NCBI GenBank assembly: GCA_018664485.1
Contig: JABJOE010000007.1
Location: forward strand, 68,353-132,352
From: Candidatus Uhrbacteria bacterium
GTDB lineage: Bacteria > Patescibacteriota > Patescibacteriia > UBA9934
Direction: 5' to 3'
Length of the DNA stretch: 64,000 nucleotides
Position numbers and translations under genes: made by a program. The stretch's first letter is position 1; every line of letters begins with the position of its first letter. A model generated the notes under the pieces. It did no database searches. It was not told the DNA's origin and saw nothing but the letters and a program-made list of their open reading frames with translations. This document shows, in pieces, positions 4,085 to 37,544 of this stretch.

Positions 4085-4708
4085 TTACCCTTTAGCTAAA
4101 GTGTAATACCAAACTCTACTGGCTCCTCCTTTATAAATTACCTTAGAGGCTGCGTACATCGTAGATCCCGTAGTCCAAACATCATCTATAAGTAAAACTT
4201 TTTCCTCTTTACGCTGGTTCCTGCTCATAAACGGAGAATCTTTTAAAGACCTTTTTCTTTGAATATTAGACTGCCTTGCCTGCGCCTTTGTATATTTCGC
4301 CCTCACTAAGATAGAACGCATTTCAAGATCCAATTTCACTGCCAGCCATTGCGCTATCTCTTTTGCCTGATCAAAACCTCTGCGATTCTTTTTCACTCTA
4401 TGCAGTGGAACATAGGTCACAACATCAATTCCGGCAGCACCTACAAATGACGACAAAACCGGAATCGCTATTTCCATTTTTTCTTTTAATAAATCCCAAG
4501 CGCTCCAGTCATACGAATACTTCCAAGCACACATCAACGACCGTGCTATCGGATCGGCATACAAAAACGAAAAAACGTGTCGTTTTCCAGACAGGTGAAT
4601 CGGAACATCTAACCAGTCAGAACGGCAATCACCACAAAGCAAACTACCTTCCACCCTACAACCTACGCAAAAGCGCGGGAAAACCGCGCGTACAAAAAAA
4701 GACCTCAT
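4085..4708 (-). CDS. comF: ComF family phosphoribosyltransferase-domain protein (competence protein F-like)
   Basis: It has an N-terminal 4-Cys zinc ribbon (CVGCRVEGSLLCGDCR) and a C-terminal PRTase motif (VLLIDDVWTTGSTM). The length is 207 aa. Confidence 0.75.
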   Translation of the reverse strand: MRSFFVRAVFPRFCVGCRVEGSLLCGDCRSDWLDVPIHLSGKRHVFSFLYADPIARSLMCAWKYSYDWSAWDLLKEKMEIAIPVLSSFVGAAGIDVVTYVPLHRVKKNRRGFDQAKEIAQWLAVKLDLEMRSILVRAKYTKAQARQSNIQRKRSLKDSPFMSRNQRKEEKVLLIDDVWTTGSTMYAASKVIYKGGASRVWYYTLAKG

Positions 4709-4786
4709 ACTCTCTCCAAAGTAAATGAATAATATTCTAAATGAAAATGTACAATGTTAAACACTGACCCCTAAAGCCGGAGCGGT

Positions 4787-5022
4787 CCAAATGTAAATTG
4801 AACGTTCTGATTTGAGGTAAATTTCGGTGCGCGGGTGATAAACGAGGAAACGTACTAATAGTACGTAGACGAAGTTTATCGGGCCCCAAAACAGAAAGTG
4901 TTCCAAGCTAAAGTTGAACGTTTGTATTTGTGATCAATTTCGGTGCGAGGGTGGCAGACGAGGAGACGTACAGATAGTACGGTGACGAAATCTGTCGGGT
5001 CCCACAAGCCGAAAGTGGTTCA
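4787..5022. repeat. two tandem copies of about 118 bp of a hairpin-rich element (candidate structured RNA) in the comF upstream intergenic region
   Basis: Unit A contains ...TTTCGGTGCGCGGGTGATAAACGAGGAAACGTACTAATAGTACGTAGACGAAGTTTATCGGGCCCC..., and unit B contains ...TTTCGGTGCGAGGGTGGCAGACGAGGAGACGTACAGATAGTACGGTGACGAAATCTGTCGGGTCCC... The paired segments GATAAAC/GTTTATC in A change to GCAGAC/ATCTGTC in B with compensating substitutions. An internal CGTAC-loop-GTACG hairpin is conserved. Confidence 0.5.
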
Positions 5023-5044: not shown

Positions 5045-5599
5045 CTACTCTGCCCAGGTAAAGCTATCCACTAACCATGTATCCCCGCTTGCAATCATAG
5101 CAACCTCAATCTCCTGATAACGAGTCGTTGTGTTTGCCGGGCTATCAATTGACTCCGCTCGCTGTGTTGTAATCAATAAAGTTATAGATGAGTCAGAACT
5201 CGCTACCGTTTCAAATGTAAGCACGGTTGTAGAGACTCCATAATAACTCTCGCTGTCCTGGCCACGTGCACTCTCTGCAATTCCCAACAGACGATCCTGC
5301 AAAGAACTCGTTGCCAAAGCAGAAACTTCATCTATATTGTCATATCCGGATTCGCTCGAAAAACTACCAAAGCGTTCTACGAATACTCGAGCGATCGTCT
5401 CAGGCTGATCGGGTAAATCAGATGTATCAACCGTTTCAACTGGAGTGTCATCATCTTCCCCATCAATCACCTCAATATCATCGTCTTCCCGGATGTTCTC
5501 AATAATTGCCGGACGCATGAAGTACAAGAACAATAATATCCCCAATACTAGCAAAATTAGTACGGCGATAATTATTTCGATTTTATGTTTTCTTTCCAT
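5045..5599 (-). CDS. hypothetical acidic membrane-anchored protein (184 aa). It may be a VirB8-like bitopic component.
   Basis: It has an N-terminal TM helix (IIIAVLILLVLGILLFLYF) and an acidic extracytoplasmic domain. It is the last gene of the T4SS-like operon, immediately 3' of the VirB4-like gene. Confidence 0.5.
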   Translation of the reverse strand: MERKHKIEIIIAVLILLVLGILLFLYFMRPAIIENIREDDDIEVIDGEDDDTPVETVDTSDLPDQPETIARVFVERFGSFSSESGYDNIDEVSALATSSLQDRLLGIAESARGQDSESYYGVSTTVLTFETVASSDSSITLLITTQRAESIDSPANTTTRYQEIEVAMIASGDTWLVDSFTWAE

Positions 5600-5602
5600 A
5601 TT

Positions 5603-7525
5603 CTATTTATTTTCTTGCTTGCCACCGAATGAATCTTCAAACTCTTTGCGCGCTCGCTCGATCTCAAGAAGCTGTTCTGGATTCGTGGTAATAAGCTGAT
5701 CTTCTGTGTACGAAGCGACAACTTTCACAGCAGCATGTTTTGATCCTGCAAAGAATATCCCCTCTCCAACTGATGCCTCCAGCAGAAGGTAGCGCTCACT
5801 TTGAGTAAGGTTAAACGTTTTTGCCACGACATCAATTCCTGCTGGCGACTGCTTCATCAACATCTGCAGTGATGAGTTTGTAACAATCGCTTGCCCGTAC
5901 GCACTCTGCAAAAAGTCATTCACGTCCTGCGTGATCGTCGTTACTCCCAGGTAATATTTACGAGCACGTTTCACAAGAGCGAAAATAAACTTCGCAGAAT
6001 CCTCATGTTGCATGAGCCACCAAGCCTCATCAATCGTCAGCAAACGTTTTTTACGAACAGATCGCACAACATTCCAAATGTAGTTCACAATTGTATAGAT
6101 TGCCATCGGCCGTAGCTCATCTTCCAAATCACGCACAGAGAAAATAACTAACTGGTTATTCATCTGAACCGTTGTCGGCGAGTTCAACAAACCTGAGAAT
6201 GTACCTTCCGTATACTTTCGTAATCGATCTACCAAGTCCCCTGCACCATCCATTCCCTCCAGGATCTCCTGCAGGTCTTGCATGATTGGGTACTCTACGC
6301 CCTTAAGGGACGGAAGGTCCGGTGTAATATCTTTCTTTGCATATGCCTCCAAAATCGCACGATCGAGCGTAGAATCCTCGGCAGGCGTGAACCCTCGAGC
6401 ACCCTTTGAACCCATTGGCTGACCGATCATGATACGGAGTAGTCCCTTAATAGTAATAACAGCAGACCGCAAAATGTCTTCCACAGATGTACCCTCCCCG
6501 ATCGCTCGCGGCAAATCAAATGGGTTGATCTTACTTTCAGACGCAAGTGACACGTTCACGTAAGTACCACCCACAGCATCCGACAACGTGCGGTATTCCA
6601 TCTCCGGGTCAATAACAATGACATCTGACCCCATCATGAGTGAGCGCAGAATCTCCAATTTCACTGTATAACTTTTTCCAGCACCAGACGTCGCAAACAC
6701 AACAGCGTTAGCGTTCTGTAGTGAAAATCGATCAAATAGAATCAAGGAGTTATTGTGACGGTTGATACCATACAAAATCCCAGTGTCGCTCGTAAGATCT
6801 GATGAAATGAACGGGAATGACGACGCAATTGGCGACGTACTCATATTAAACGTAATCATCAGCTCATCATTTCCGATCGGAAGTGTAGAGTTAAACCCTT
6901 GCTCTGACTGATAAAATCCACGTTTCGTGTAAATAAGTTTTGAACCGAAAATTGACTCGATCTCATTACTTCGTCTATCTAGCTCTTCTTTATCGTCAGC
7001 GTAAATAGTAATGTAAAAAGCGAAGTGGAAGAAGTGCTCGATCCCCTGCGTTAGATCGTCTCGCAATTGCTCAACGTCCCGAAGAGCAGTTTCTTGAATA
7101 GGATCACGCGGTGCCCCCTTCTCATTATCAGAAATGATCTGAGCTTCCAAAATTCCAACCTTGTCCTTCAGCTGCTTCAAAATCGCTTCCGCTGGAATTG
7201 GATAGAAGAACATTCCAATGTCGATCGTTCCGTTATAGTTGATGATCGGTGACCCCCAACCGATGTTCACGTAACGAGGATATGTAACGATGAACAATGT
7301 TCTTACGAATTTTCCACCCAAACGTAGAAAGTCCGGATTGATCTGGAACGAAACCGGAGCAATCAAATCACGCACGGCGATTGTACCGCGGCGATAGATG
7401 CGCTCTTCTTCAAGAGTCTTTTTCTGATCGGCTGACGCCAACTGCTCTTGTGTCAGTTTCTTCGGACCTTCGTCCTGAGCCTTCTTTGGCTGATTTTTTT
7501 GAAATTGTTGTATGTCAATTGCCAT
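5603..7525 (-). CDS. virB4: VirB4/TrbE/CagE-family type IV secretion ATPase (640 aa)
   Basis: Walker A VVFATSGAGKSYTVK, Walker B LLTIDEAWWLM, and the N-proximal FIVTYPRYVNIGW motif are typical of Gram-positive VirB4 homologues. Confidence 0.8.
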   Translation of the reverse strand: MAIDIQQFQKNQPKKAQDEGPKKLTQEQLASADQKKTLEEERIYRRGTIAVRDLIAPVSFQINPDFLRLGGKFVRTLFIVTYPRYVNIGWGSPIINYNGTIDIGMFFYPIPAEAILKQLKDKVGILEAQIISDNEKGAPRDPIQETALRDVEQLRDDLTQGIEHFFHFAFYITIYADDKEELDRRSNEIESIFGSKLIYTKRGFYQSEQGFNSTLPIGNDELMITFNMSTSPIASSFPFISSDLTSDTGILYGINRHNNSLILFDRFSLQNANAVVFATSGAGKSYTVKLEILRSLMMGSDVIVIDPEMEYRTLSDAVGGTYVNVSLASESKINPFDLPRAIGEGTSVEDILRSAVITIKGLLRIMIGQPMGSKGARGFTPAEDSTLDRAILEAYAKKDITPDLPSLKGVEYPIMQDLQEILEGMDGAGDLVDRLRKYTEGTFSGLLNSPTTVQMNNQLVIFSVRDLEDELRPMAIYTIVNYIWNVVRSVRKKRLLTIDEAWWLMQHEDSAKFIFALVKRARKYYLGVTTITQDVNDFLQSAYGQAIVTNSSLQMLMKQSPAGIDVVAKTFNLTQSERYLLLEASVGEGIFFAGSKHAAVKVVASYTEDQLITTNPEQLLEIERARKEFEDSFGGKQENK

Positions 7526-7551
7526 ATAAGTACATCTCTACCAAAAAGACA

Positions 7552-8256
7552 TTAAAACCCTTCTTCAACTTGAAGTTCATTTAAATTGACCAGTCTCTGC
7601 GCATCGTAAATATCTGGGTTGTAAACAACGTAATACAACTCGATTAAGCTTTGTGTATCGAGAGCCTGACTCTTTAGACCCATACTCATAAGCCCACCCT
7701 GGATAATACTAACGCGCTGCATCAAATCATGTCGTCGCGTCTTGAACTTCTTCTCATTTAGCTTCACGATCGTAGCTGGCATGATCGCATCTGAAAGCTT
7801 AGACCAGAAGTTTCGCTTTTTGTCTGTAACTGGGTCATATGGAACAACAACGTAAAAGCGCTTCTGCATGATCTCTCCTAAATCTACCAGTTCGTTTACG
7901 AAACTCTTATAGTCACGGATTTGTGCCTTTAAAAGATCGTTATCGATTTCTGCCTCTCGCTTCTTAAGAGCGTCCATATACGCCTCAACATTCATCTTAC
8001 GAGACTGAATCACTACCTGAATTGGATAATCCAAACCATTTAAGAACTGCATGTAAGCTTGTACTGTCGCTTGCTGCTCTTCTTGGGACTTCAATGCAAA
8101 GTTAATACTTGCAACCATTATCACGGCGCGGAGAGTTCCATCCTTCAAAACAACTGTCCCCTCTCTAATTTCTGCAATATCTAAATATCGCTGGGTTGGT
8201 GGCCCAGGTTTCGCTTTGGCAAGCTTCTTTGATTGCATCTCTTGACTCTTTCCCAT
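7552..8256 (-). CDS. hypothetical 234-aa protein, possibly a separately encoded VirB4 N-terminal-like domain
   Basis: IREGTVVLKDGTLRAVIMVASINFALKSQEEQQ resembles the conserved start of the CagE/TrbE/VirB family. It lies 26 nt upstream of the VirB4-like ORF in a different frame. Confidence 0.5.
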   Translation of the reverse strand: MGKSQEMQSKKLAKAKPGPPTQRYLDIAEIREGTVVLKDGTLRAVIMVASINFALKSQEEQQATVQAYMQFLNGLDYPIQVVIQSRKMNVEAYMDALKKREAEIDNDLLKAQIRDYKSFVNELVDLGEIMQKRFYVVVPYDPVTDKKRNFWSKLSDAIMPATIVKLNEKKFKTRRHDLMQRVSIIQGGLMSMGLKSQALDTQSLIELYYVVYNPDIYDAQRLVNLNELQVEEGF

Positions 8257-8261
8257 AAATC

Positions 8262-8699
8262 TTATTCATCAGGGTGATAAACACCACCCGTATTAACTAC
8301 CAACGCAATATCTCCAAGACGTGACTTTTCAATCAGTCTTTTCTTTGGGATAACTGGCGCAGGCTGTTTTACAACTTTTTCTCGAAGTTGAGCTTTCAGC
8401 GTCCGCGTATCAACTGTCTTGTCCCAAACACGAAGCATCGGCTTACGGAAAGTCTGAATCATGTTTAGAGCAATGTAATGAACCGGTCGCCCGTTAACCT
8501 TCACGAAAGCAATGATGATTCCACCAGCAAGTACCGGAACACCCAAAGCTATAATAGCGATAATGCTGAGGAAAATTCTATAAATCAGAAATTCAGCTAA
8601 TACCGTTGCAAGTAAAATCAAAAATTGTCGCGCCGTAATAGGTCCGATAATCTTCGCCTCGGTATCTAAGAATTGTGGGACAACAAATTGCTCTGGCAT
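8262..8699 (-). CDS. VirB3/PrgI-like small membrane protein (145 aa)
   Basis: Two adjacent TM helices (ARQFLILLATVLAEFLIYRIFLSIIAIIALGVPVLAGGIIIAF) and a position immediately upstream of the VirB4-like genes match the Gram-positive T4SS gene order. Confidence 0.5.
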   Translation of the reverse strand: MPEQFVVPQFLDTEAKIIGPITARQFLILLATVLAEFLIYRIFLSIIAIIALGVPVLAGGIIIAFVKVNGRPVHYIALNMIQTFRKPMLRVWDKTVDTRTLKAQLREKVVKQPAPVIPKKRLIEKSRLGDIALVVNTGGVYHPDE

Positions 8700-8975
8700 C
8701 TTTAGAACTTATGCATTTGGACTATTATCGGCTTGCGGATCTTTTATTTCGCCCAACTTAATGGATAAAAGTATCCTGCGAAGCCGGACCAGGCTCTGCC
8801 TGGCGTTTTCTAGCCGACGTCCGCGCACCGAGACTACCCTCAAATGAATCAGTTCTAAACCTTACACCTATATTATAACATTAATACAAATGTCTCGTCT
8901 CGTACCAGGTTTATACATTTGTGGTCAGTTTAAGTGCGTGGGGAAAACCTAAATATTACAAAACCCAAAATCCAA

Positions 8976-10925
8976 CTAAAATTTCACCTGTGAGTTCAGT
9001 GTAACGATCGCCTTCAATTCAGCAGGGCTTAAAGTCTCCTCCCCTTGATTTCGCAATTTAGCCGCAACTTCTGCAACAGAACTACCACTATGCAACCCCT
9101 CCTGTACCATCGATAAGTACAGCTGATTAATCGGACTTGATCGCCACGCAGCGATACCTGCAATGCGCTCTTCGTAATCCGTTTCTTCAAGCAATGAAAG
9201 TGTGTCAGCGACTTTTCTTGCAGACCCGTCTGGATCCGATGCCAACCTACGGAAATCAGAAACCTTCATAGTCCCTAATTCTTCCACAGGACCAATAAGT
9301 GTTGGTATATATTTTACATCCGTTACTTTTTGACGCTCTTTTGGTGCCGCTTTCGGTGGAGCAGAGGCAGTACTCAGCTTAACTTTCGCTTTTGACGGGC
9401 GATCCTTAGCTCGTGCCTCTCGCTCAGATCCCACATCAACCTTTTCGTGTTGAGCGCTAAGCTCCTCGTCTTTTGTTCGTGCAGCACTCACTCGAGCGCC
9501 AGGAAGTACCGGTTTTATAGACTCTTTGGATGGACTCTTTGTCAGCGCCGCATACCGACGATCCATTATATTTCCACCAGCCTTCTTTGGAACTTGCCCA
9601 ACTTTCACAACCTGCTTAACTTTTTTGTGCGACAATTCCCACTCCTGCCTTATAAGAGCGAGTGATTTAATAGCAGTTTGAGCCGTCTTCCCGTCGAACC
9701 CGTGAAGCTCTTTTAACTGCTGGAACAAACGATCTGGCCCCAGTCTTCCCTTCATGACAGCTTCCGCATAAGAAGCAGCCTTTTTCTTCGTAAGTTTCTT
9801 GCCAGTTGCATGTTCGAGTAAAACACCAGCCGCTTTCTCAATTTCTTTTGAAATAGATTTTGCACTCACAACTGGAGTAGATTTTTCGAGCTTGCGCTTA
9901 TGCTCTTCGATCTCCTGCTTTTCTTTATGATCAATAAGTTCGCCAGCTATGACAGGGACTTCTTTTGTAAGTGCAGTCGTCGTTAAAATTGCCGGTGGGG
10001 CCGCTTTTGAAACAGCTACCTCAACGGATTTTTCAGATGTTACCCCAGGCTCTGGCTTCGGTTGCCGCTTTTTGTAGGTGATCTTTACTTCGGGTTTTTT
10101 CTTTTCGATTTTTGGTTCTTTTGGGACTTCTTGCACGATCGGCCTTGGTTCCGGCTTAGGTTCCGGCTTAGGTTCCGGCTTAGGTTCCAGCTTAGGTTCC
10201 AGCTTAGGTTCCGGTAATGATATTACCTCAGGCGTAACAGGCTTTTCCTCGATCTTTTTTCCACCATCTGCTTTGGTAGGTTCTGGCAAGTCAATAACAT
10301 CTTCTTTAGCGCTCATTTCACCTTTGTAATCTTCCGCAGCCGTAAGATCTAATGCATCTAACCAACCCAATACCTTCGTAATATGTACATCAGCTAATCC
10401 AAGACCACCAATATTCATCGGCCGTTTCATCAATGTTACTGTCGCATCTTTACTTCGCTCTTTGCTCAAATAACCCTTTGCAAGATATACAAAACGTTTC
10501 AATAAATGTTCCGGCAAATCTAGCCCGAGTTTATCAGCCTGTGCACGCAATAATGAAACAACAGTAACTGAGTCTTCTTTGAGTCTAATCGTAGAAAAAT
10601 CAGTCACCTTCCCTCCCCAAGCAATCAGTTGTTTTTCTACCCCACCAATATAATGATCGAGTTGCAACAACCTATGTCCTGCGAGCTGAATAGATATAGC
10701 CTTAGCGTCATCTTTTGACACCCCAAAAGCCTCCTTCACAAAATCCGGCATCTTATCAATCGCAAGATGTCCATCCATTACAGCATCTAATAAATCTAAA
10801 AACTCCTCTCCACGCCCCGCTGGGAGACTGTATTTTTCCTCAAGTGTATCGAGAACGTCGTAAATCTCAATGCCCATCAAGAATTTACGGATTTTGCTAA
10901 CAGATTTTAAATTCCGTTTTACCAT
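8976..10925 (-). CDS. hypothetical Lys/Pro-rich protein (649 aa) with a central (PEPK)n linker. It is a T4SS-cluster component of unknown role.
   Basis: A complete ORF with no TM helix. It contains the low-complexity PEPKLEPKLEPKPEPKPEPKPEPRP and a conserved-looking C-terminal globular region. Confidence 0.6.
   Translation of the reverse strand: MVKRNLKSVSKIRKFLMGIEIYDVLDTLEEKYSLPAGRGEEFLDLLDAVMDGHLAIDKMPDFVKEAFGVSKDDAKAISIQLAGHRLLQLDHYIGGVEKQLIAWGGKVTDFSTIRLKEDSVTVVSLLRAQADKLGLDLPEHLLKRFVYLAKGYLSKERSKDATVTLMKRPMNIGGLGLADVHITKVLGWLDALDLTAAEDYKGEMSAKEDVIDLPEPTKADGGKKIEEKPVTPEVISLPEPKLEPKLEPKPEPKPEPKPEPRPIVQEVPKEPKIEKKKPEVKITYKKRQPKPEPGVTSEKSVEVAVSKAAPPAILTTTALTKEVPVIAGELIDHKEKQEIEEHKRKLEKSTPVVSAKSISKEIEKAAGVLLEHATGKKLTKKKAASYAEAVMKGRLGPDRLFQQLKELHGFDGKTAQTAIKSLALIRQEWELSHKKVKQVVKVGQVPKKAGGNIMDRRYAALTKSPSKESIKPVLPGARVSAARTKDEELSAQHEKVDVGSEREARAKDRPSKAKVKLSTASAPPKAAPKERQKVTDVKYIPTLIGPVEELGTMKVSDFRRLASDPDGSARKVADTLSLLEETDYEERIAGIAAWRSSPINQLYLSMVQEGLHSGSSVAEVAAKLRNQGEETLSPAELKAIVTLNSQVKF
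10141..10212. repeat. 12-bp tandem microsatellite, (GGTTCCGGCTTA)x6 with C/A variants, encoding (PEPK)n
   Basis: ggttccggcttaggttccggcttaggttccggcttaggttccagcttaggttccagcttaggttccgg is seen directly in the sequence. Confidence 0.85.
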
Positions 10926-10947
10926 GTTAAATTAATTCTACAACGTA

Positions 10948-13929
10948 TTACGGCGTAGCAGTAGGTGGAGGTGTGTTGCGATGAAGTGCCCTGAATTGAT
11001 TAAGCTTTGTAGTAAGTTGTTTTGTAGCACCACCAGCAACCTCAGCCGCAGCATGCTCACGCTCAAGTGCATCAAGAGTTGCTTTTGCAGACTTGCGAAT
11101 ACGATCCTGTAACCCTGGATCCTTATCATCCCCCGCACGGTCATACAAATCAGACATATTCCGGGCAGTTGCAGACGTAGTTTTACTCGCAATAAGCTTC
11201 GTCAAATCCGTAGATCCTTGCGTGCTATCAATATTCGCTTGGAAATTAAAGGTTTGTGTTGGTTGCTGAACGATCATCTCCCTTACAGACTTCTTCTGAT
11301 CCTCACCCTGGAATCCACCTGAACCATTAACAAAATTATTTGCTGCCCCACCTGTGACATCAGCACTGAGATATGCTTTTTGATATTGGCGTCGCTCCTC
11401 AGCAGACAAGTCAGCGTTCTGACCACCTTTCTCCAATTCATCCATGATTTTATTATAAGCCGCCGGATTAGTAGCCTGCATACCCTCAAGGCCACCAAGG
11501 TCTGTTCCTGCCTTCATCATCGCCTTTGCCATCGATTGGATCTTCTTGTCATCCAGCTCACTAACTCCGGCAGTGTTATTGGTACTGAGATGATCAACTG
11601 TTAGATCGGAAATCTTCAACTTCTCGTTCTTAAGGGCCTGTGCAATACGTGAAGGATTCTCAATACCTGCACCGCCGCCTGTACCACGATATAGTTCATC
11701 AAACTTAGCGCCTTCACCACTCGCAGCATTCTTAACTTTAGTACCAACACCGCCTTTTCCGAGCGCGGCTTGATCAAGCGCACTCTCTCTAACAATATTA
11801 TTGTCTTTGTCACGAAATTCACGCATCGTCTTTGCAGATAACGCCTCCAACACATGCTCACTTTCCATATCCTCCTCACTGAGCATACTGATCTTAAAGT
11901 CGTCTCCCATCTCATTAAGGAACTCTGTGATGGCCTGAGTTTCATTACCTGCAGCGGCACCGGCTGCGACACCACGCAAGTTTCCTGCCTTCATCTTGTT
12001 AAGATCAGACTTCTTATCACCAAGCATCGCTTTACCGGAATCACTACCAGACCATTCGAGCACTCTACTCATCTGTTCATCATAAATTTCATTCTGTCGT
12101 TCTTTCATCCAGGCAGCCTTCTCCTTCTCATCAGCGAAATTATTATTCTTACCGGCTTCTGACTTTGCACGCTCTTCAGCAAGTCCCTTAAGCTCTTTAC
12201 GCTCCTTCCCATCTGTAGCTAAACGTGCGTAAGCACCCTCAACCTTATTACGATCTGAAGCTGCCTTTGGCATTTTCGGTCTACCATCCTCACCCATCTC
12301 AAGATCCATAACACTACCAACACGGTGTCGAGCTGTCATGCCGTCAAGTGATTCGCTTGCAGCGGCACGAGCCTCCGCCTGCATAGCATTACCCTTACCT
12401 TCAACCCATCCACCAGCTCCACGTGCAAGGTTTCCAGCTATACGACCAGAGAGACCTCCGCGTGCTTCCATCTCTCCACCAAATCCCTGTACAGCCTTTC
12501 CAAGATTGGAAAAAGTACCTTCACGTGATTCCAGTTGTCGAGCGCCCTCAATAGCAGCCATCTTTCCACCCTTAAGCGCCAAGCGCCCACCAGCCATACC
12601 GGCACGAGCGCCAAGTCGAGCGCCAGCCATACCACCACGTACACCGAGTCGGCCAGTCTTGTAAGCCAAAGACGCAGGCGCCTTAACAGCGTTCTTCACA
12701 AGAGACTTTCCAGTATTTTCGTTAATCATCTTTCCGGCAAAACCACCCATGCCTGATGCAGCGCTACTCGCAGCCTGGAAACCAGCCATAATCAAAACCA
12801 TGGCAAGGAACAAACTCAATAGCTCTTCAATCCGGAATACCTCCGCAAGCAACGATGGCACATCTTCCGTACCTTCAATTGGGAATCCTTCAGATGAAGC
12901 CAAAGACCCCTCGGCTGCGGCAGCAAGTGCAAGCCACAGAAAGAATGTCAAAATCGGCCCCAATGTGACGGCACCAATAAGCTTAGTCCACCACTCCCCC
13001 GCAGGTCCTCCGGCTCTAGGCACGATTTCTTTGATACCACTCAAAAAGAATGCCATTGGAGACATGATAAGTAGTACCCAGATTAGAACAATTCTATAAA
13101 TAAAGACGATCGCTAGCAAAACCAGCACTCCTAAAACAGCAATCATGAATACGAGCGTCGCATATGAGGTCGCAAGGTACCCAAGTCCTTCCATTGGCGC
13201 TCCTCCAGCTGAAAAGTTATTAATGGCGTCGATGTTATCGATGTTGTTTGCAAAGAATGACGTCAGCTGGAACATGTTGACGAAGTTCCCGGCAGCAATA
13301 TCACGCAAAGCGTTTACAAAGGTAAACATCACAACCTGCCCAACGTCGACGATGAGCAATGTAATAGTACGACTGAAGTTTACGGCAACGATCGCGATGA
13401 ACAACCTCGGAAGTTGCTGCTGCCAATTGGCAGATTTAGATCCAATAATCGTTTTAATCGCAATTACCAACAAAATGATAATCACGAACATGTTCACAAC
13501 GTCGCGAACCAAAGGCCAACCGATATCAACGATGTTACTGTCAGCGAATCCGTTGTAGCCCATGATCGGAATGACAACCATTCCCAAAATCAAAACAATC
13601 AGTTTTCCAATAGCGTAACCAATGACGTTTAAAATAAGTGCTGCGAACAGAAGGAGGATGTCGAGCATCGTTCCGATCTGTGAAAGCAACATCTCTCCAA
13701 AATCTTGCGCATGCGCCGGGTGTGCAGCTGCAAACACAAACATGGCAGCAAGAGTACCAACAGTAGAAAGTCGGTTCTTTTGAAGCCATCGTGTGCAACG
13801 CTTAAAGCCGGTGCGCAAGTAGTGCATATCTATACAAAGTATAACACAGCGATCTGTAGTCGCCGTTTTTATATTCACACTCGATATACTGCTGAAAACT
13901 AAGCGCAAAGATGAGGCGCACACGAGCAC
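10948..13929 (-). CDS. VirB6/TrbL-like polytopic membrane protein with a long C-terminal Gly/Ala/Lys-rich hydrophilic extension (up to 993 aa)
   Basis: There is a possible signal peptide ending AHPAHAQD and then at least six TM helices across about 400 aa. A 550-aa low-complexity tail follows. The gene sits between the M23 hydrolase and the VirB3/VirB4 genes. The ORF caller starts at a GTG at 13929, and MHYLRTG at about 13825 is a more plausible start. Confidence 0.6.
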   Translation of the reverse strand: MLVCASSLRLVFSSISSVNIKTATTDRCVILCIDMHYLRTGFKRCTRWLQKNRLSTVGTLAAMFVFAAAHPAHAQDFGEMLLSQIGTMLDILLLFAALILNVIGYAIGKLIVLILGMVVIPIMGYNGFADSNIVDIGWPLVRDVVNMFVIIILLVIAIKTIIGSKSANWQQQLPRLFIAIVAVNFSRTITLLIVDVGQVVMFTFVNALRDIAAGNFVNMFQLTSFFANNIDNIDAINNFSAGGAPMEGLGYLATSYATLVFMIAVLGVLVLLAIVFIYRIVLIWVLLIMSPMAFFLSGIKEIVPRAGGPAGEWWTKLIGAVTLGPILTFFLWLALAAAAEGSLASSEGFPIEGTEDVPSLLAEVFRIEELLSLFLAMVLIMAGFQAASSAASGMGGFAGKMINENTGKSLVKNAVKAPASLAYKTGRLGVRGGMAGARLGARAGMAGGRLALKGGKMAAIEGARQLESREGTFSNLGKAVQGFGGEMEARGGLSGRIAGNLARGAGGWVEGKGNAMQAEARAAASESLDGMTARHRVGSVMDLEMGEDGRPKMPKAASDRNKVEGAYARLATDGKERKELKGLAEERAKSEAGKNNNFADEKEKAAWMKERQNEIYDEQMSRVLEWSGSDSGKAMLGDKKSDLNKMKAGNLRGVAAGAAAGNETQAITEFLNEMGDDFKISMLSEEDMESEHVLEALSAKTMREFRDKDNNIVRESALDQAALGKGGVGTKVKNAASGEGAKFDELYRGTGGGAGIENPSRIAQALKNEKLKISDLTVDHLSTNNTAGVSELDDKKIQSMAKAMMKAGTDLGGLEGMQATNPAAYNKIMDELEKGGQNADLSAEERRQYQKAYLSADVTGGAANNFVNGSGGFQGEDQKKSVREMIVQQPTQTFNFQANIDSTQGSTDLTKLIASKTTSATARNMSDLYDRAGDDKDPGLQDRIRKSAKATLDALEREHAAAEVAGGATKQLTTKLNQFRALHRNTPPPTATP

Positions 13930-13949
13930 GCCCCATCACGTTTTAGCCT

Positions 13950-15764
13950 CTACTCCATCGACCTGCAATCGGTATGCGAGAGCGGTGACAATTCACCAGC
14001 CTGCACCTGAAAACACAGGGCGTGACTCATGTCCTGGTTTTCGTGACAGAGCTCAGAGCTGGTAGACGATGAAAGACAGTCCTGCCAGAACATCGCCCAC
14101 TCACTTTGCGTCCTCATGTTGATGCGATACCAACCCTCATCGAAAGCGTACCAGCCAATGTCGGTATCAGTATCGTACTCAACGAGATAACTCATGTCGT
14201 ACGACCATCCACCGCTCACTCCAACGCCGGTCACGGCAACATCAGCTCCATCTACTGAATTCGAGAACGTTTCACCAATTCGCAAGCCAAGCGCTGCGCC
14301 ATCCACGTAAATCCACGTCAGACCTTCTGCGAGATCATCGGGAATAACCGGCTCCTCCTGCTCATCATCTTGTGTGCCACCAGTGTCGCCTTCGTCTTCG
14401 GACGTGTCTCCCTCCCCCTCCTCGTCGTCTTGAATACCCCCGTCTGCTGAATAGGTTCCCTCAACCGTCGGACCACCACAGGTCATGATGTCGGCACTCG
14501 ACAGGCAATAACTTCCAGAAGCGCAGTCGCCCACCCTACTCATTACCGATCGGATCGAGCCATCGTCCACTTGCATGAGCTCGCGGTCGTACAGATCCAT
14601 CAGCAGATATGTTTCCCAGTCCAAGATAGGCATTGCGATGCCATCTGCGACGAAGTACACGTCCGACTCTCCGGCCTCGGTCACAATCGTTCCGTCTCGG
14701 AAAGGTGTGAAGCTATTTACTACCGGGTAGTGCTCGAGCATATTACTGTCGCCGCTCAGATCATCGTATGTACTCGCCGTAATACCCCAGCTCTTGAGCG
14801 TGGCCTGCCAAGTACTCGTACGAACTCGCTGTGCGTATCGATTTTCGTCATCACCAGCACCGACCAACAGCCAAACCTGGCCATCGTCGTAGAGCGCCCG
14901 GATCTCCGTCGCCGTCTCCAGCATCGTTCCTGTGTCAAAGCAGCTGAGCTCCCTCTCATCAACGATCACCAGATCATCAAAAGAGAAGTTGTAGCTCCAG
15001 AACACCTCCTCATCGAGAATTTCACGTGCTTTGCCACCCTCGATGAGGTAGACGTTCGAATCGCTTGGCGTCTTTACCAATGCCCCGTTTGGATGCCACT
15101 TGGACGTACTCAGTTGCGAATCATAGATATGCCCGTCGTAGAGTCCACAGACGAAGTCTGCGACCGGGATCGTGCGAACGACCGTATTTGACCGGTCATA
15201 AGCACGGATCGACAGACCATCAATGGACGTACCTAGCGAAGCGTTTACCCACGCATCTCCCTCATGGCGACCAATATGAACATGGTCGCCGGTTGCAGCA
15301 CCAGTAGCCCCTTCAAAGCCAAGAATCTGGCCGGAAGCAACTTCTTCACCGTGCTCAATGAGTACAGCACTCAAGTGCGCGAGCAGAATGTAAGTTCCGT
15401 CACCCAAATCAATGTTGATGTGTGTACCGAAGCCATCGGTGCTTTCGTGTACATATGCCGTGCCGCCGATTGGTGCGTAAAGCAAGTCGTCAGACACATT
15501 GGGCGTGTCGAAGTCCAAATCGAACTGCGTTGAGATGTATGCGTGCGAATAGCTTTCGCCCACACCCTGCACACACTGACTCGAGTAGCCCGAAGCGAAG
15601 GGCATATTGATGGTAATCGCATCGCGGCCACCTCCAACGCCGGGACTCACAGTCGACACATCATGATACGCGCCACATCCGCCATAGGACACAACGAACA
15701 TCACCAGCGCCGTCCCCCATGCAATCGCATTGAGAACCGCCAGAACCGTTTTGATAGTCGGCAT
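13950..15764 (-). CDS. secreted M23-family metallopeptidase (peptidoglycan hydrolase), 604 aa, with an acidic C-terminal tail
   Basis: An N-terminal hydrophobic segment (LAVLNAIAWGTALVMFVV) is followed by the M23 motif (FEGATGAATGDHVHIGRHEGD, i.e. HxH) and upstream H/D residues. The gene is the first of the T4SS-like operon and has a local GC of about 55-58%. Confidence 0.75.
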   Translation of the reverse strand: MPTIKTVLAVLNAIAWGTALVMFVVSYGGCGAYHDVSTVSPGVGGGRDAITINMPFASGYSSQCVQGVGESYSHAYISTQFDLDFDTPNVSDDLLYAPIGGTAYVHESTDGFGTHINIDLGDGTYILLAHLSAVLIEHGEEVASGQILGFEGATGAATGDHVHIGRHEGDAWVNASLGTSIDGLSIRAYDRSNTVVRTIPVADFVCGLYDGHIYDSQLSTSKWHPNGALVKTPSDSNVYLIEGGKAREILDEEVFWSYNFSFDDLVIVDERELSCFDTGTMLETATEIRALYDDGQVWLLVGAGDDENRYAQRVRTSTWQATLKSWGITASTYDDLSGDSNMLEHYPVVNSFTPFRDGTIVTEAGESDVYFVADGIAMPILDWETYLLMDLYDRELMQVDDGSIRSVMSRVGDCASGSYCLSSADIMTCGGPTVEGTYSADGGIQDDEEGEGDTSEDEGDTGGTQDDEQEEPVIPDDLAEGLTWIYVDGAALGLRIGETFSNSVDGADVAVTGVGVSGGWSYDMSYLVEYDTDTDIGWYAFDEGWYRINMRTQSEWAMFWQDCLSSSTSSELCHENQDMSHALCFQVQAGELSPLSHTDCRSME

Positions 15765-16423
15765 TCCGACTCCATTTGTAGAAGTACATGAGAAACGTAA
15801 TCGAAATGATCAACGGCCTCCCTTTTTGTAGGAGTCCCACAATTTGCGGGGGTAGAAAAAGTGAACGTTGAGTACTTCGATATATTGATTCGTGCGGGGC
15901 GGGCCGAAACCCACCCCAGAAGGACGAACACGAATCGTTGCGATCCTCACTCCCCATAAGGATCTATAGACTGTCACTCATCGATGACATATGTCAGGAT
16001 CTCGCGATGAGCGTTGTAACCGATGCGGTCTACACAATAACCAGGACGGCGTTTGATATGCGGCTAACAATTCTCTCTCCTCATGTTGCTACATACGTTT
16101 ACGGGCGGGCCAGTAAATTGCGTTTCGTTTTTGCAGAGGTTCCTACATCCATTTCCTCATGTACACAGACCATCTGCAATAGTTCTTTTAGTGTGTTCTG
16201 GCTGTTTGCTGTCAAAGTGATTTGGCAGCCTGTTTATTTTTGTAATGTTGAGCGCTACCGATGGTGTCATCGTTACTCGACAGCTCATGGGGACAACATT
16301 TTTGAGAAATAATCACGGCGCAAGATTTGAAATAGTTTTACAGAAACTTTTTATAAAAAAGCATCAATCCCCGCCCGAGAGTTCTCGGACGGGGTCATAC
16401 GCTTTAAATCTCACTCTACGCTA

Positions 16424-17226
16424 TCAGGGTTTGAGGTTGCTGAGGCATGCCGCCTTGCGAGCTTTTCTCGCTGCGTTTTCTTGTTCCTCTTCGTCGCGCC
16501 ATTCTCGGATAAGCTTCTCGATTCGCTCTTGGTCTGATCCGCCTTGAGCTTCGCGTACTCGGAGCTCTTCGATGTAGCTCGGCGTGAATTCCGGAGTAAA
16601 GGCGCCGCCCGGATATCTCGCACTACTATGTGCACCCGGGAATTCTTCAGAACACGGCGAGTAATCAGTGATGATCATTGCAGTCACATGCACAGGCTCT
16701 GCAAGCTCGCCCGTTCGAAGGCCGCATGGGTCACTTGGCATCATGCACTTGCGTGCAAGCATTTCCACCGAGCTACGCTCGTTGCCGGCGCTATCATAGT
16801 AGATCCAGCGATCCGGGTCATTGACCTTACCGTGAACCCAGAGAAGTCCAATCGCCATAGCTACAGCAACTACGCGAGACATCGCCTGGCCACGGCTCAC
16901 AACTACACGTCTCCATGGACGGTTCTTACTTCCCCATCCGGCTCGTTCGTATACAGCACCCTCCCACCAATTGACATCGAACAAGCCAGGCGCGATTACG
17001 GAGTCTGCCGAATCAGGATCTCCGGGTGCGTAGCGGGGATCGGTATCTGACGTACCGCTGCCTCCGCCGATTCCGAGTTCTTGTATGACCGCTCCGGCCA
17101 GTGAATCATCCTCACCTACGTCTTCGTAATCAGGCACCCTTACACGTGGAGCCCCCTCAGGCCTTGGTCGTGAAGCAGCTCTGCGCGACCGTCCTGTAAC
17201 CGTACCTCTTACTGGAAATCTACTCA
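16424..17226 (-). CDS. hypothetical protein (267 aa) with an Arg-rich N-terminus and a central TM helix. It lies in a GC-rich islet.
   Basis: An ATG at 17226 is preceded by GGAGAGGAGG. The ORF caller extended to 17278. The sequence includes RVVAVAMAIGLLWV. Confidence 0.5.
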
Positions 17227-17621
17227 TGAAGCCTCCTCTCCCCCGGCACACGATAAAATTTAAATAGTATTTCGTCAAAACAATTATGTAGTCTTGGTTG
17301 AGAGTTGGATATATTTGAAAATTTCTGTTTTAGTTGGCTAGATTTGGCGAAAAGTTATTCAGTAGTTATGCACAATCGTAAATATATGAATTAGGCCGAA
17401 ACTAGCAATAAACATGAGTTTTTGTGTAGTTTTTGAAAAATCGTTTAAACTTCGCCAATTTTGTTCATGGATGGTTGACAGATCCATTGACTTTTTGGCT
17501 AATCCATGCCATGCTATAGATAGTTTCAAGGAGTGCGTCTTGCATTTTCCTGATCCCGTTCTTTCTGAGTCCGTTAAATCGGACATGCTGTAGCTGCAAC
17601 CCCCACCCACAACTCGAGGTC

Positions 17622-18332
17622 ATGATGCGCTTCCTTAGCCTTCTCACTCTCGCTGTGGCCCTGGCGGGCTGCGGCAATTCCAACAACCCAGACGCCGACG
17701 ACGGAAATGTCGGAGGCACCGATACGGACACCACGCTCAACGGCACCGCGTACTTCACGCCTGGCGGCATCGGCATCACCGACAGCGACGGCAACGTCAA
17801 CGTCGAAAGCTGCACCTCCACGCTGTACGAAGATGACGAGACGCTCAACTACGGTCTGACCGGCGAGACTCTCGCCGTCCCTGTGGCGAGCAACGGCGAC
17901 ATCGACGTCACTGTGAAGCACGGAAGCCCCGAGCTCGTTGGCTGTGACGGTCAGTACCTCCACCCCAGTGGCGGTCAGGACTACATGGCCTTGGACACCG
18001 AGTCCACGCTCAACGACGGCGACACCGAAAACGGCGACAGCCCCATCGGCTTCACCTACTTCGAGTGGGATGGTCAGCTCGACTGCTCTTTCTCGGACGA
18101 CTTCGGCTGGGAAGACGACTGCGATGGCGTGAACGACGCCACCAACGATGCTGGTAAAACCTGTGTCGACAATCGCGGCAAGCTCTCGATCTGCAATGAC
18201 AAGATCGACTTCAGCACCGGTATGGTCAACGGCGACGGTGTTTTGACCGATGTCGAAGCGACTGAGGCTGGACTGACACTGACTTTCCAGAGCAACGGTG
18301 TGAACACTCACGTGAATTGCACGGTCCGCTAG
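17622..18332 (+). CDS. Asp/Gly/Thr-rich lipoprotein (236 aa)
   Basis: Signal peptide with a lipobox, MMRFLSLLTLAVALAGCGNS. The mature part is Asp-rich. GC is about 60%. A GC hairpin plus T-tail follows downstream. Confidence 0.6.
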   Translation: MMRFLSLLTLAVALAGCGNSNNPDADDGNVGGTDTDTTLNGTAYFTPGGIGITDSDGNVNVESCTSTLYEDDETLNYGLTGETLAVPVASNGDIDVTVKHGSPELVGCDGQYLHPSGGQDYMALDTESTLNDGDTENGDSPIGFTYFEWDGQLDCSFSDDFGWEDDCDGVNDATNDAGKTCVDNRGKLSICNDKIDFSTGMVNGDGVLTDVEATEAGLTLTFQSNGVNTHVNCTVR

Positions 18333-18526: not shown

Positions 18527-21500
18527 CTACGGCGTAACGTAAATATAACCATCATAATACACCCATGGATCATAGCCCGTGGCACCGTCAGGATACCGTT
18601 CGAAGTTACAGGAATAATTACTTACCTGAGCTCCAGCTACACTCTCATCAAAACAACCTTCATCGTCATCACAGATTCCAGTACACCATCCCCAGTTATC
18701 ACGAACATGTACTTTCGGCTGATACACACATGAAATTTCATCATATGTACATGGACTTACCTCTAAGTCGTTTCGATCATTCTCCGTACAGGTTGGTAAA
18801 TCTTCTGGAGCCCAGCACCTATAAGTGTGGGAATAGTTGAATTCATTAGGATCGCAAGTGTTACTAGTCAATCCCCATGCAGTATCTAGATCACACTTAG
18901 ATAGGGTACTCGTGTCATCAGATCCATCATCTTCACCATCCTGCAGACCGCGGTGGTTTTTATAATAGTTAGCTGCATCATCTGATCCAGATGTATCTCC
19001 ATCACCCCAGTCCACAATGATTCTACGTATTGGCAATTGATTCTTGTCTGCTGCTGCAAAGAATTTTAATGTTGCTCGGTAATAACCTCCCTCAGCCTCT
19101 ATATCTCCTTCATTTGTACTGTTAACTGTTAGTGCATCATCCTCATCCTCGTGACAATATTTCGTTCCACAATCCTCAGTATCCACTGACCAGACAGTAG
19201 GCGCCGATCCATATGTCTCACGCACATCACTTCCTGCGTCGTCACCTATATAATCACTTAGTGTTGTACCAGAAGCTCCTAGCTCCGTATCTTCATCCGC
19301 ACCATCACAATCCCCGTCACATACCTCAACGTATGACCCTTCAATAGTGTCATAATCCCCTATTTCTTGCTCTGGACCCTCCCAGTACCAAACACCTTCA
19401 AAATTAGCAAAGATTGAATTCATGCGGGTAATAACGGTACTCACACTATCACTCGTATCCCAACCGATGCTTGAGAGATCAAATGCAGGACCATTCAACT
19501 GAACAGTAAAGTCTGCATACGATCTAGCACTTGGGTCATCAGAATCCGTACTGTACGTATAGTCACGAGCGCTACATTCGCTACCAGCACCCGTTGAAGG
19601 TACCAACTCATAACAATCTCCAGTTCCGGTACCAGCATCCTCACAACAAGCAGGAATACGTACTGGAGCTAATCCAACCGGCGTACCATCGTCATCGTCC
19701 AAATCTACAGGATCTATGGAGGCACCATAAGGACCAGGTGAACTTTCTAGATCGTAACCAAGAGTAGAGATAGTTGTATCATAATTCGTTGACCACAATC
19801 GATCAGTCCAAGCAGCATTCTCACCAGGTCCGTTAGAAGTTTTAATGATCACCGTACAAGCCGGATATTTAAGAGGGTTGAGATACGCTTGGTAAAAACC
19901 ATCCCCGCCATCTGTACAACTTGTATTGCTAGAACATCCGCTCTGATATCTTAGATTGTCATACGTATCATTATCTGTATCACGTGGAACTCCCGGAATA
20001 GCACAGCGCTTCGCCTCATCAGCTACCACGTCAAAATTACCATTTAATGCATACACCCTATTAGTATGCCCATCATAATTCGCACTCCTTGTGTCATACG
20101 AAGGACTTACACCGGCGCGGTCAATAATACTATCAATATCACATTCACCTCCCGTATCAATATCTTGCGATCCATACGGTACACATACATAAGGGCAATC
20201 GTTCGCTCCTCCATGGTCACACTGCTCAGCATAGTTACCACTTCCATCAAAACTTTTCTCACACTTACCCATAAGTGCGAAATACCCATCATTACAAACT
20301 GCATTATCATCACAGTTCAAGTAGTTCTCACTACTTCTACTTCTACAAACTTGATTACCGTGTGTTTCGGCACAAGAAATAGACTCTGTTGAATATCCAG
20401 ATACCGACTGAGTAAATCCATGTTGAGTAGAGTTACTTGTATAGAAGTCCATGTATAGCTGAGTGTACCCACAATAGTAAACCTCCTCGGTATACCCTGC
20501 CCCTGAATACTTCGCATACAAGTCAGTCGCACCAGATACCTGATCAACCGGGAACCATGTCACACACGCACCCAGAACTTCATCTCCATTAATGTTCATT
20601 CCTGTGTCGCGCTCCAAGCAATATCCTTCGAGTCCGAAGAAGTCCTGAGATCTCGTTATCTTGTCACAGTTTCCAATATGACCATCTGCTCCGTAAGATC
20701 CATCTGACACAAATGAATCATCATAGTATCGGCAGTCATCATCGTCCCCACATAGCGCTCCGGCAACCGGTGAATCGGAAGAACAAACACCATTAACATT
20801 TATATCGCCTAGATCTGTTTCGTACGCTACGAATTGATCTCCGGATGTTTGGGTACCGACTCGAACATATGAACATTCACATGTTTCACCCGGCGCACAG
20901 GTTTGCGCAGACGAGAACCCTGCCTTCCAAGATGACGGAAGCATTCCTCCATAATAGTTGTCTGTACCAATAGTTTCGCCGTCAGCCGCGATGTCATCCA
21001 ATGTTAGTTGCTCTTCGGTTGTTTCAAGATCTACTACAGTACCACCACTCGCTGTAGTAGTCGCTGTTGAATCATCAGTATGTGATCCATATCCAAGATA
21101 AGACCACTCTGTCACCACATCAATTGTAAACGGACTGTCAGCTTCTGGTTGCGCTCGGCAATATGCATCTTCCGTTACCTCTGAGTCGAATTGGTTTCCG
21201 TTCACCGCCAAGAAGCATGTTCCGCCATAACATGACCCTTCTTTCGCAGCAGCTGATCCGAAACATGTGGATTCTTCATCCTCGCATGTAAAACTAGTAT
21301 TACAATTACCTGTTTCATCCACACATGACCCGGCAAGACAAATATCAGTTCCACTACAGTCGTCATCTTCTTCGCATGTATCGGTTGACACTGTGTAACA
21401 GACTCCCGTAATACACGAATCGCCATCGATTTCACAGTCATCGCTTTCGGCACATGCAGATCCGGTGCTTTCACAATACCCAACGGTACAATCCTCTGAA

Positions 21501-27845: not shown

Positions 27846-28538
27846 TTATTCTGCTTCGGCTATATCAATAGTTTCTTCAACAATAGCGTCAATCTCTCCG
27901 GATTCTTCCAAGTCGCCCAATACGGAATCATACAATGACTGCAAATCTTCATCAGAAATTTCAGAAAGCTGTTCTTCAGTTGCTCCAGCTTCTATCAAGA
28001 GACCGCGGATGTCATCAGGACCGAAATCTTTCAAAGCATCCGTTATGTCCTCCACCGCTTGTCCGTCTGTAGAGATAGAATCTAGATATGCAGACAAAGC
28101 TTCATTTTCAAGTCCAACTATCGAGTACTCATCTTCGCAGCGTCCACCCGCAGCACATGTCGGATCGGTACCTGCTTGAAGTTCTGTAAAATCGTTATCG
28201 CCGTCGCCATCTGTGTCAGCCAAGTACATGCTCGTTCCAAAGATGTAGAGCTCATCGTAGTCAGAAAGTAAATCACCGTCTGTATCTGATACTCTCTGGT
28301 CGGCGATCTCCTCTTCCCGTGCTTGATCTGAAGTTACAAACCGCTCACCCTCGTACTGAATATTAAAAGGATCAGACAGATGGTCGAAAAGATAAACAAC
28401 TCCCAAGATAATAGCGAGGAAGCCGCTTGCTACAACCAGAAAAAATCCAGCCCGTTGCTCACGTGTGAACGAAGGCTTTGTTTTTCTAATCTTTACGCGA
28501 TTGTCATGCACTTCAGGCATGCGACGAGCGATGCTCAA
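27846..28538 (-). CDS. membrane-anchored acidic protein (230 aa) with tandem DxDxDG-type (dockerin or thrombospondin-type-3-like) Ca-binding motifs
   Basis: TM helix GFFLVVASGFLAIILGVVYLF, with the motifs DTDGDLLSDYDE and DTDGDGDNDFTE. The gene is 22 bp upstream of, and co-oriented with, the giant gene. Confidence 0.55.
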   Translation of the reverse strand: MSIARRMPEVHDNRVKIRKTKPSFTREQRAGFFLVVASGFLAIILGVVYLFDHLSDPFNIQYEGERFVTSDQAREEEIADQRVSDTDGDLLSDYDELYIFGTSMYLADTDGDGDNDFTELQAGTDPTCAAGGRCEDEYSIVGLENEALSAYLDSISTDGQAVEDITDALKDFGPDDIRGLLIEAGATEEQLSEISDEDLQSLYDSVLGDLEESGEIDAIVEETIDIAEAE

Positions 28539-37076: not shown

Positions 37077-37110
37077 ACCCCGCGCCGATCTAATCGGTGC
37101 GGGGTTTCGT
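37077..37110 (+). terminator. GC-hairpin terminator, copy 1 of a near-identical pair
   Basis: CCCCGCGCCGATctaATCGGTGCGGGG followed by TTTCGTGC. Confidence 0.55.
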
Positions 37111-37511: not shown

Positions 37512-37544
37512 CCCGCGCCGACTGATCGGTGCGGGGTTTCGTGC
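37512..37544 (+). terminator. GC-hairpin terminator, copy 2
   Basis: CCCGCGCCGActgATCGGTGCGGGG followed by TTTCGTGCGTCT. It is about 90% identical to copy 1. Confidence 0.55.

Follow-up and report, generated by a model that had tools for sequence, protein, structure and literature searches.

An operon on a Candidatus Uhrbacteria chromosome very probably encodes a type IV secretion system of the published Patescibacteria kind

Type IV secretion systems (T4SSs) are nearly universal in Patescibacteria, a lineage estimated to hold about a quarter of bacterial diversity (PMC7427843). Such a system is essential for epibiotic growth in the sole genetically tractable member. For Southlakia epibionticum, Wang et al. 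(2023, Cell, PMC10633639) reported this essentiality together with the lack of a recognisable coupling protein or relaxase, as does a 2025 FEMS review (PMC12857230). Quiñonero-Coronel et al. (2025, Microb Genom, PMC12102498), surveying 3,035 Patescibacteria genomes, found 2,425 VirB4 proteins in a single monophyletic clade that lies within the mating-pair-formation (MPF) type MPF_FATA, with TrsD as the commonest partner and with PrgI/VirB3 and VirB6 frequently adjacent. In the same survey, a VirB2-like pilin near virB4 was frequent without being universal, peptidases other than VirB1 were thought probably to serve as the wall hydrolase, VirB8 homologues were almost confined to ABY1, and ABY1 loci commonly carried comF, recG and radA. 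Here we compare these systems with a seven-gene operon at positions 5045–15764 (minus strand) of a 64,000-nucleotide (nt) stretch of Candidatus Uhrbacteria DNA from contig JABJOE010000007.1; this whole stretch of 64 kb is referred to as the window.

The operon is very probably a chromosomal T4SS of the Patescibacteria clade that derives from monoderm MPF_FATA conjugation machinery and has the ABY1-type arrangement. All seven long, co-oriented open reading frames (ORFs) reported by a first-pass annotation of this DNA were found again at the same positions. They are tightly packed, with intergenic gaps of 3–26 nt and a sole exception of 276 nt between the gene for a 649-amino-acid (aa) protein and prgI. 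With comF, which follows them, the genes are:

13950–15764, minus strand: M23 metallopeptidase, 604 aa (Pfam Peptidase_M23, 6.7e-13)
10948–13929, minus strand: putative extended VirB6-like polytopic protein, 993 aa from a GTG, 959 aa from the more likely ATG at 13827
8976–10925, minus strand: soluble Lys/Pro/Glu-rich protein, 649 aa, no match in Pfam or among PDB sequences
8262–8699, minus strand: PrgI-family (VirB3-like) protein, 145 aa, two transmembrane (TM) segments (Pfam PrgI, 3.2e-8)
7552–8256, minus strand: TrsD-like VirB4 N-domain protein, 234 aa (NCBIfam VirB4_plasma, 2e-10; TrsD, 7.7e-5)
5603–7525, minus strand: VirB4 ATPase, 640 aa (NCBIfam conju_CD1110, 348.8 bits)
5045–5599, minus strand: VirB8-like bitopic protein, 184 aa, VirB8 fold
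4085–4708, minus strand: comF, encoding a ComFC-type phosphoribosyltransferase-like competence protein (TIGR00201 comF, 8.9e-23)

Set beside the Patescibacteria-clade systems (PMC12102498; Southlakia genes SEML1_0006-0019, PMC10633639), the locus is alike in being chromosomal and in having a VirB4 of MPF_FATA affinity, a separate TrsD-like gene next to virB4, a PrgI/VirB3 gene, a polytopic VirB6 candidate, a non-VirB1 peptidase as wall hydrolase, and no relaxase or type IV coupling protein (T4CP) nearby. With the ABY1 loci in particular it shares comF and recG as neighbours and a detectable VirB8. Three differences stand out. A VirB2-like pilin array is essential in Southlakia, whereas none was found near the operon in the window; no VirB8 was found structurally in Southlakia, whereas the VirB8-like protein of the window is confirmed by structure; and neither paper names a soluble accessory protein like the 649-aa one. 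The locus fits the published descriptions feature for feature, down to its comF and recG neighbourhood, and the system is therefore already known from work of 2023–2025. It adds no new system type and is a textbook ABY1 example of that description. The present analysis makes small additions: structural confirmation for VirB8, linkage of comF to the operon and the breadth of the 649-aa family.

Relatives of the locus were collected by scanning one genome per species with the VirB4 query, which returned 557 related genomes; the locus counts given throughout use the best 80 (69–92% identity). Where the record names a plausible taxon, nearly all of these 80 are Uhrbacteria, Falkowbacteria or other Patescibacteria metagenome-assembled genomes (MAGs), and we take Uhrbacteria, Falkowbacteria and their kin among them to be class ABY1 in GTDB. 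The conserved gene order in the 80 loci is M23, VirB6-like, 649-aa, PrgI, TrsD, VirB4, VirB8-like and comF, with recG further on, and this synteny persists down to about 25% protein identity. Many of the closest relatives, L001, L002 and L010 among them, have 78–92% VirB4 identity yet bear the record titles 'uncultured Gammaproteobacteria bacterium' or 'Candidatus Kapaibacterium'; these labels, on genomes with a Patescibacteria-type operon, look like mislabelled MAG taxonomy.

The 640-aa protein exceeded the NCBIfam conju_CD1110 cut-off (348.8 bits against 325, profile positions 165-730) and matched Pfam P-loop_TraG (1e-25); it covers the middle and C-terminal P-loop domains of VirB4, and its Walker A (SGAGKS) and Walker B (LLTIDE) motifs are visible by sequence, in agreement with the first-pass annotation. 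The best family models for VirB4 were the monoderm CD1110 and Mbov_0397 types. The neighbouring 234-aa protein, which had been proposed to resemble a VirB4 N-domain, is confirmed as such by its matches to VirB4_plasma (profile positions 98-234) and TrsD, and it also occupies positions 11-165 of conju_CD1110. In PrgJ, the VirB4 of the Enterococcus faecalis plasmid pCF10, residues 45-93 correspond to the 234-aa protein, whereas residues 231-772 align with the 640-aa one (23% identity, E 2e-36), which indicates that VirB4 is encoded here as two polypeptides with a separate gene for the N-domain. The 145-aa protein, described earlier as VirB3-like with two TM segments, scored 34.4 bits with Pfam PrgI (gathering cut-off 27) and is predicted to have two TM segments; its gene was found in 77 of the 80 loci.

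Could the split virB4, taken with the missing mobility genes, mean that the locus is a decaying and now functionless remnant of an integrated conjugative element? Two ORFs in place of one could resemble disruption. However, separate TrsD-like and VirB4 genes adjoin each other in 79 of the 80 loci, all genes are intact and the gene order holds down to about 25% protein identity. Compared with the closest relative, the nonsynonymous substitution rate (dN) was 0.06-0.44 and the synonymous rate (dS) was saturated, and dN/dS was 0.02-0.2 where it could be computed, far below 1. All operon genes are under purifying selection and, with their synteny in 80 loci, cannot be taken for chance ORFs. These conservation data effectively refute the idea of a functionless remnant.

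Outside Patescibacteria, a match in gene order is the Prg/Pcf T4SS of pCF10, the MPF_FATA prototype, which shares the core order VirB6 (PrgH), VirB3 (PrgI), VirB4 (PrgJ) and, further on, VirB8-like (PrgL). The first-pass annotation had likened the order hydrolase, VirB6, VirB3, VirB4 to Tn916/pCW3 modules; the match lies in pCF10 rather than in Tn916, with the hydrolase placed at the front. The two loci also diverge. pCF10 has the T4CP PcfC, the relaxase PcfG and the adhesins PrgB and PrgC, all missing from the window locus; it carries the SLT/CHAP hydrolase PrgK after VirB4, whereas the window has an M23 peptidase at the front; and its VirB4 is unsplit and plasmid-borne, whereas in the window VirB4 is split and the locus is fixed on the chromosome.

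Mobility genes were sought across the window and around the relatives. Pfam and NCBIfam scans took in all listed ORFs of 200 aa or more, save for one that overlaps in antisense, together with 16 ORFs below that length, and they found no relaxase, T4CP or integrase; the scanned ORFs had core functions or no family match. Neither the window nor the 80 related loci (±10 kb) gave a tblastn match to PcfC, TrwB, PcfG, TrwC or the Tn916 integrase, and no oriT- or att-like repeats were linked to the MPF genes in the 64 kb. The earlier statement that VirD4, relaxase, oriT-like repeat and integrase are missing from the window is borne out, and a complete conjugative element flanking the operon, which would have made it an ordinary mobile element, was looked for in the 64 kb without a relaxase, T4CP or integrase being found. 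The description of the operon as lacking a coupling protein stands for the 64 kb; genome-wide it needs the qualification that nearly all genomes of the survey (2,918 of 3,035) had VirD4-like genes, in most cases a long way from virB4 (PMC12102498).

That survey bears on the possibility that the operon serves mating-pair formation in a conjugative system, with the genes for its T4CP and an unrecognised relaxase at other places in the genome. Every component that can be recognised has homologues among monoderm conjugation proteins, and the distant VirD4-like genes could supply the coupling function. However, relaxases occurred in only 103 of the 3,035 genomes and the distant T4CP is not essential in Southlakia (PMC12102498), the window and the ±10 kb around its relatives hold none of the mobility features named above, and the locus has a fixed, conserved chromosomal position. 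We consider a conjugative role very unlikely. With no relaxase, T4CP or integrase nearby and with many species carrying the locus at a fixed place among their core chromosomal genes, the sequence data indicate that it is not a conjugative element. The proposal of a chromosomal, non-conjugative, Gram-positive-type T4SS in a bacterium of the candidate phyla radiation is upheld by the component matches, the core-gene flanks and the lack of mobility genes in 64 kb.

The gene that follows the operon deserves separate treatment. In 73 of the 80 loci comF lies downstream of the VirB8-like gene, and from the VirB8-like stop to the comF start the relatives have a median gap of -10 nt (at most 103 nt in 64 of 72), figures that assume the longest possible comF ORF. 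With the two genes touching or overlapping in most relatives, comF behaves as an eighth operon gene in ABY1-type loci. The first-pass annotation had listed comF and recG as neighbouring core genes; both were recognised in our scans, although comF is more than a mere neighbour, being linked to the operon in the relatives. In the window itself the VirB8-like gene and comF are separated by a spacer of 336 nt, which contains a tandem repeat.

This linkage raises the possibility that the T4SS takes up or handles nucleic acid (DNA) together with ComF, in the manner of Helicobacter pylori ComB or archaeal Ced, and is not a protein or effector translocator. ComFC handles single-stranded DNA in transformation (PMC9005727); comF, recG and radA co-localise in ABY1 (PMC12102498), and recG lies nearby here as well. 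ComB and Ced are further alike in being T4SSs without relaxase or T4CP that are tied to competence proteins, ComF being the one in the window. By contrast, ComB is of the diderm VirB2-B10 type and Ced uses CedA/A1/A2 with CedB, and the window shows no specific sequence affinity to either: the CedB model gave a partial match of 42 bits against a cut-off of 700 and CedD 17 against 600. Patescibacterial competence is attributed to type IV pili and ComEC, and adjacency in one lineage may be inherited synteny. In Southlakia, moreover, deletion of comEC abolishes competence and leaves viability intact (2025 FEMS review, PMC12857230), whereas the T4SS is essential; because the ΔcomEC strain is viable yet non-competent, DNA uptake does not explain why the T4SS is essential. 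A role in nucleic-acid uptake or transfer with ComF is plausible for ABY1 given the operon linkage, yet the Southlakia comEC result weakens it and we consider it unlikely; the Patescibacteria-clade T4SS with a role in host interaction or macromolecule transfer is the reading that we carry forward.

Turning to the membrane components of that T4SS, the 184-aa protein is bitopic: its N-terminal TM helix leads through an acidic linker to an NTF2-like domain with the VirB8 fold, and its profile matches pCF10 PrgL. The suggestion that this acidic bitopic protein might be VirB8-like is confirmed: in its structure the subunit is clear, and it is present at every ABY1-type locus checked. Profiles for the VirB8-like, VirB6-like and 649-aa genes each find their gene in every locus whose DNA extends far enough. 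The VirB8-like subunit is mostly missed by sequence searches, and its structural clarity here is modestly useful.

The true start of the polytopic protein is probably ATG 13827, giving 959 aa; this start yields a predicted signal peptide ending PAHA|QD, and the PAxA site is conserved in orthologues. TM prediction places six to eight helices at aa 45-400; the ~560 aa that follow form a hydrophilic tail in which Ala, Gly, Glu and Lys are abundant. The median identity of orthologues to the window protein is 32% in the TM domain against 11% in the tail. A polytopic protein of 959-993 aa with this architecture corresponds to the 'extended VirB6' of PMC12857230, and the gene stands to prgI as prgH does in pCF10. 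Matches to known families were sporadic. The window protein itself matched nothing in Pfam or NCBIfam; Pfam TrbL was matched by 2 of 40 orthologues (5.8e-4) and the NCBIfam CD3337/EF1877 mobilome membrane protein by 1 of 40 (9.8e-4). With the TM domain as query, tblastn against 72,556 plasmids gave no match, and a word-indexed homologue search returned nine close relatives only, none of them Pfam-labelled. The profile of the orthologous TM domains found no pCF10 ORF beyond a Tn916 Orf15-like membrane protein (E 0.34), and hhalign was not significant against single PrgH, TrwI and Orf15 sequences or against a 121-sequence TrwI-family alignment (E 0.34). Among R388 ORFs the same profile scored best with the pilin TrwL (E 0.0024), a match that we rejected as signal-peptide similarity only. 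An AlphaFold2 model of the TM domain from a 10-sequence alignment had a mean pLDDT of 51 and was judged unusable.

Architecture, position and the weak orthologue matches make the polytopic protein a putative VirB6/TrbL. What the first-pass annotation said of it therefore holds in part: the topology, extended architecture and gene position agree with VirB6/TrbL, as do the length and composition of the tail, which it had put at roughly 550 aa, whereas homology to TrbL/VirB6 is undemonstrated and the 'cytoplasmic' location of the tail is not established. In the survey only a minority of genomes had a VirB6 that could be recognised close to virB4, which its authors put down to extreme divergence (PMC12102498); this is consistent with the unsettled homology of the window protein.

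At the front of the operon, the M23 protein has an N-terminal hydrophobic anchor, Cys30 and, at aa ~70-175, the M23 domain; some 430 aa without assigned function make up a further, Cys-rich region. All of 20 orthologues matched Peptidase_M23, with the HxH histidines H161 and H163 and C30 invariant. Because this N-terminal cysteine is invariant, the sequence suggests a membrane-anchored lipoprotein; the M23 hydrolase predicted earlier is thus retained, whereas its description as secreted is not established. The protein is likely to be the cell-wall hydrolase of the system, as a functional analogue of VirB1 and not a homologue. As for a pilin, a search of the roughly 3 kb around the operon for small ORFs with two TM segments gave none, although divergent VirB2-like pilins could escape it and it included no hidden Markov model test.

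A second, stand-alone M23 peptidase of 236 aa (48756–49466, minus strand; Pfam, 1.2e-19) lies far from the T4SS operon and adjoins genes for tRNA-Leu and tRNA-Val.

The 649-aa protein is a conserved accessory gene product of Patescibacteria T4SSs, with a fixed place inside the operon: in 76 of the 80 loci its gene has the VirB6-like gene on one side and prgI on the other, and the remaining four are truncated. It is rich in Lys, Pro and Glu (13% Lys, in keeping with the earlier description as Lys/Pro-rich), has no TM segment or signal peptide, and contains a PEPK linker encoded by 12-nt tandem repeats at 10128-10223 and a well-conserved C-terminal domain of about 115 aa. In a library of 1.84 billion proteins this domain matched 2,034 clusters at 50% identity, 1,415 of them at E <= 1e-10; in the best 150 matches it was always C-terminal, and the proteins were nearly all 200-835 aa long. 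Comparison of Pfam and PDB sequences with 40 close orthologues and with 66 more diverse family members gave no meaningful match. A 'GGLGL' motif resembling a helix-hairpin-helix (HhH), noticed by eye, was dropped, as its spacing departs from the HhH consensus and no HHH model matched. The family is very large, unannotated and internal to the operon, which makes it a good target for structural and interaction work. One could imagine that the ABY1 T4SS forms a single operon with ComF and moves nucleic acid, by import or export, at the host interface, with the 649-aa family as a cytoplasmic substrate-handling replacement for the coupling protein; we regard this as a speculation with rather little probability.

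Component identities, synteny, purifying selection and the lack of mobility genes in the 64 kb come from the analysis itself; for the Patescibacteria-clade T4SS as we read it, we infer the following assembly. The split VirB4, consisting of the TrsD-like N-domain protein and the 640-aa ATPase, would dock on the membrane through PrgI/VirB3 and power a translocon in which the extended VirB6-like polytopic protein is combined with the VirB8-like protein as a bitopic scaffold. The M23 lipoprotein peptidase would cut peptidoglycan locally, allowing the apparatus to span the wall, and the soluble 649-aa protein may serve as a lineage-specific cytoplasmic accessory subunit. The machine would then have a housekeeping role in host interaction or macromolecule transfer, comparable to the T4SS without which Saccharibacteria cannot grow as epibionts.

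Several points weigh against this assignment. It is the nearest relatives and the family scores that put the locus in the Patescibacteria clade, and the VirB6 homology of the window protein is without statistical support. No VirB2-like pilin gene was found near the operon, although the Saccharibacteria system cannot do without its pilin arrays. The absence of T4CP and relaxase applies to the 64 kb, and distant copies are possible. Finally, no ABY1 organism is cultured, and function is extrapolated from Saccharimonadia.

The operon is flanked by core genes, namely recG, comF, ksgA, RF1, groEL, nusA, yidC and genes for aminoacyl-tRNA synthetases. The window also contains tRNAs, a response-regulator receiver, sua5, two epimerases and three aminoacyl-tRNA synthetases in all, and its recG is partial and carries a DEQHRFG motif. 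Promoter and terminator scans of the locus performed no better than on shuffled sequence.

The only repeats seen in the locus were a 116-nt tandem repeat and the PEPK codons. The former is a direct repeat of two tandem copies, 73% identical, at 4768–4999, where it fills the spacer between the VirB8-like gene and comF; a related 25-nt core, in opposite orientation, sits at 8821–8845 within the 276 nt that separate the 649-aa gene from prgI. L001, the closest relative, has about 110 nt and 18 nt at these two places, and because of this difference the repeats in the window look like small repeat-element insertions. The 116-nt repeat had no match in Rfam and its folding was unremarkable (z -1.6). 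Matches to its motif TCGGTGCGVGG at 37094 and 37526 were rejected as further copies, being unrelated GC-rich hairpins that share the 11-mer. These two hairpins (37094–37104 and 37526–37536) have the common stem CCCGCGCCGA...TCGGTGCGGGG, then TTTCGTGC; they sit among short ORFs without family match, upstream of a Wzy_C gene, and are probably terminators.

GC content rises to 0.51-0.53 at 14000–18000, compared with ~0.44-0.46 in the flanks. This stretch spans the M23 gene, an unannotated 284-aa ORF (16424–17278) that is weakly conserved in L001, and a lipoprotein-like ORF on the plus strand (17622–18332) with an LAGC lipobox and an Asp/Gly/Thr-rich body. Beyond it lies a giant ORF of 3,098 aa (18527–27823, minus strand) with an N-terminal signal or TM segment and a Cys/Asp/Ser/Gly-rich body, whose sole family match is a weak one to CBM_4_9 (8e-5). 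It probably encodes a giant surface protein; we rejected it as a conserved T4SS adhesin, given that only 5 of the 80 loci have a homologue upstream of the T4SS. Directly upstream of its start, and adjoining ksgA, is the gene for an acidic 230-aa protein (27846–28538, minus strand) that has a single TM segment and a calcium-binding repeat of the bacterial TSP3 type.

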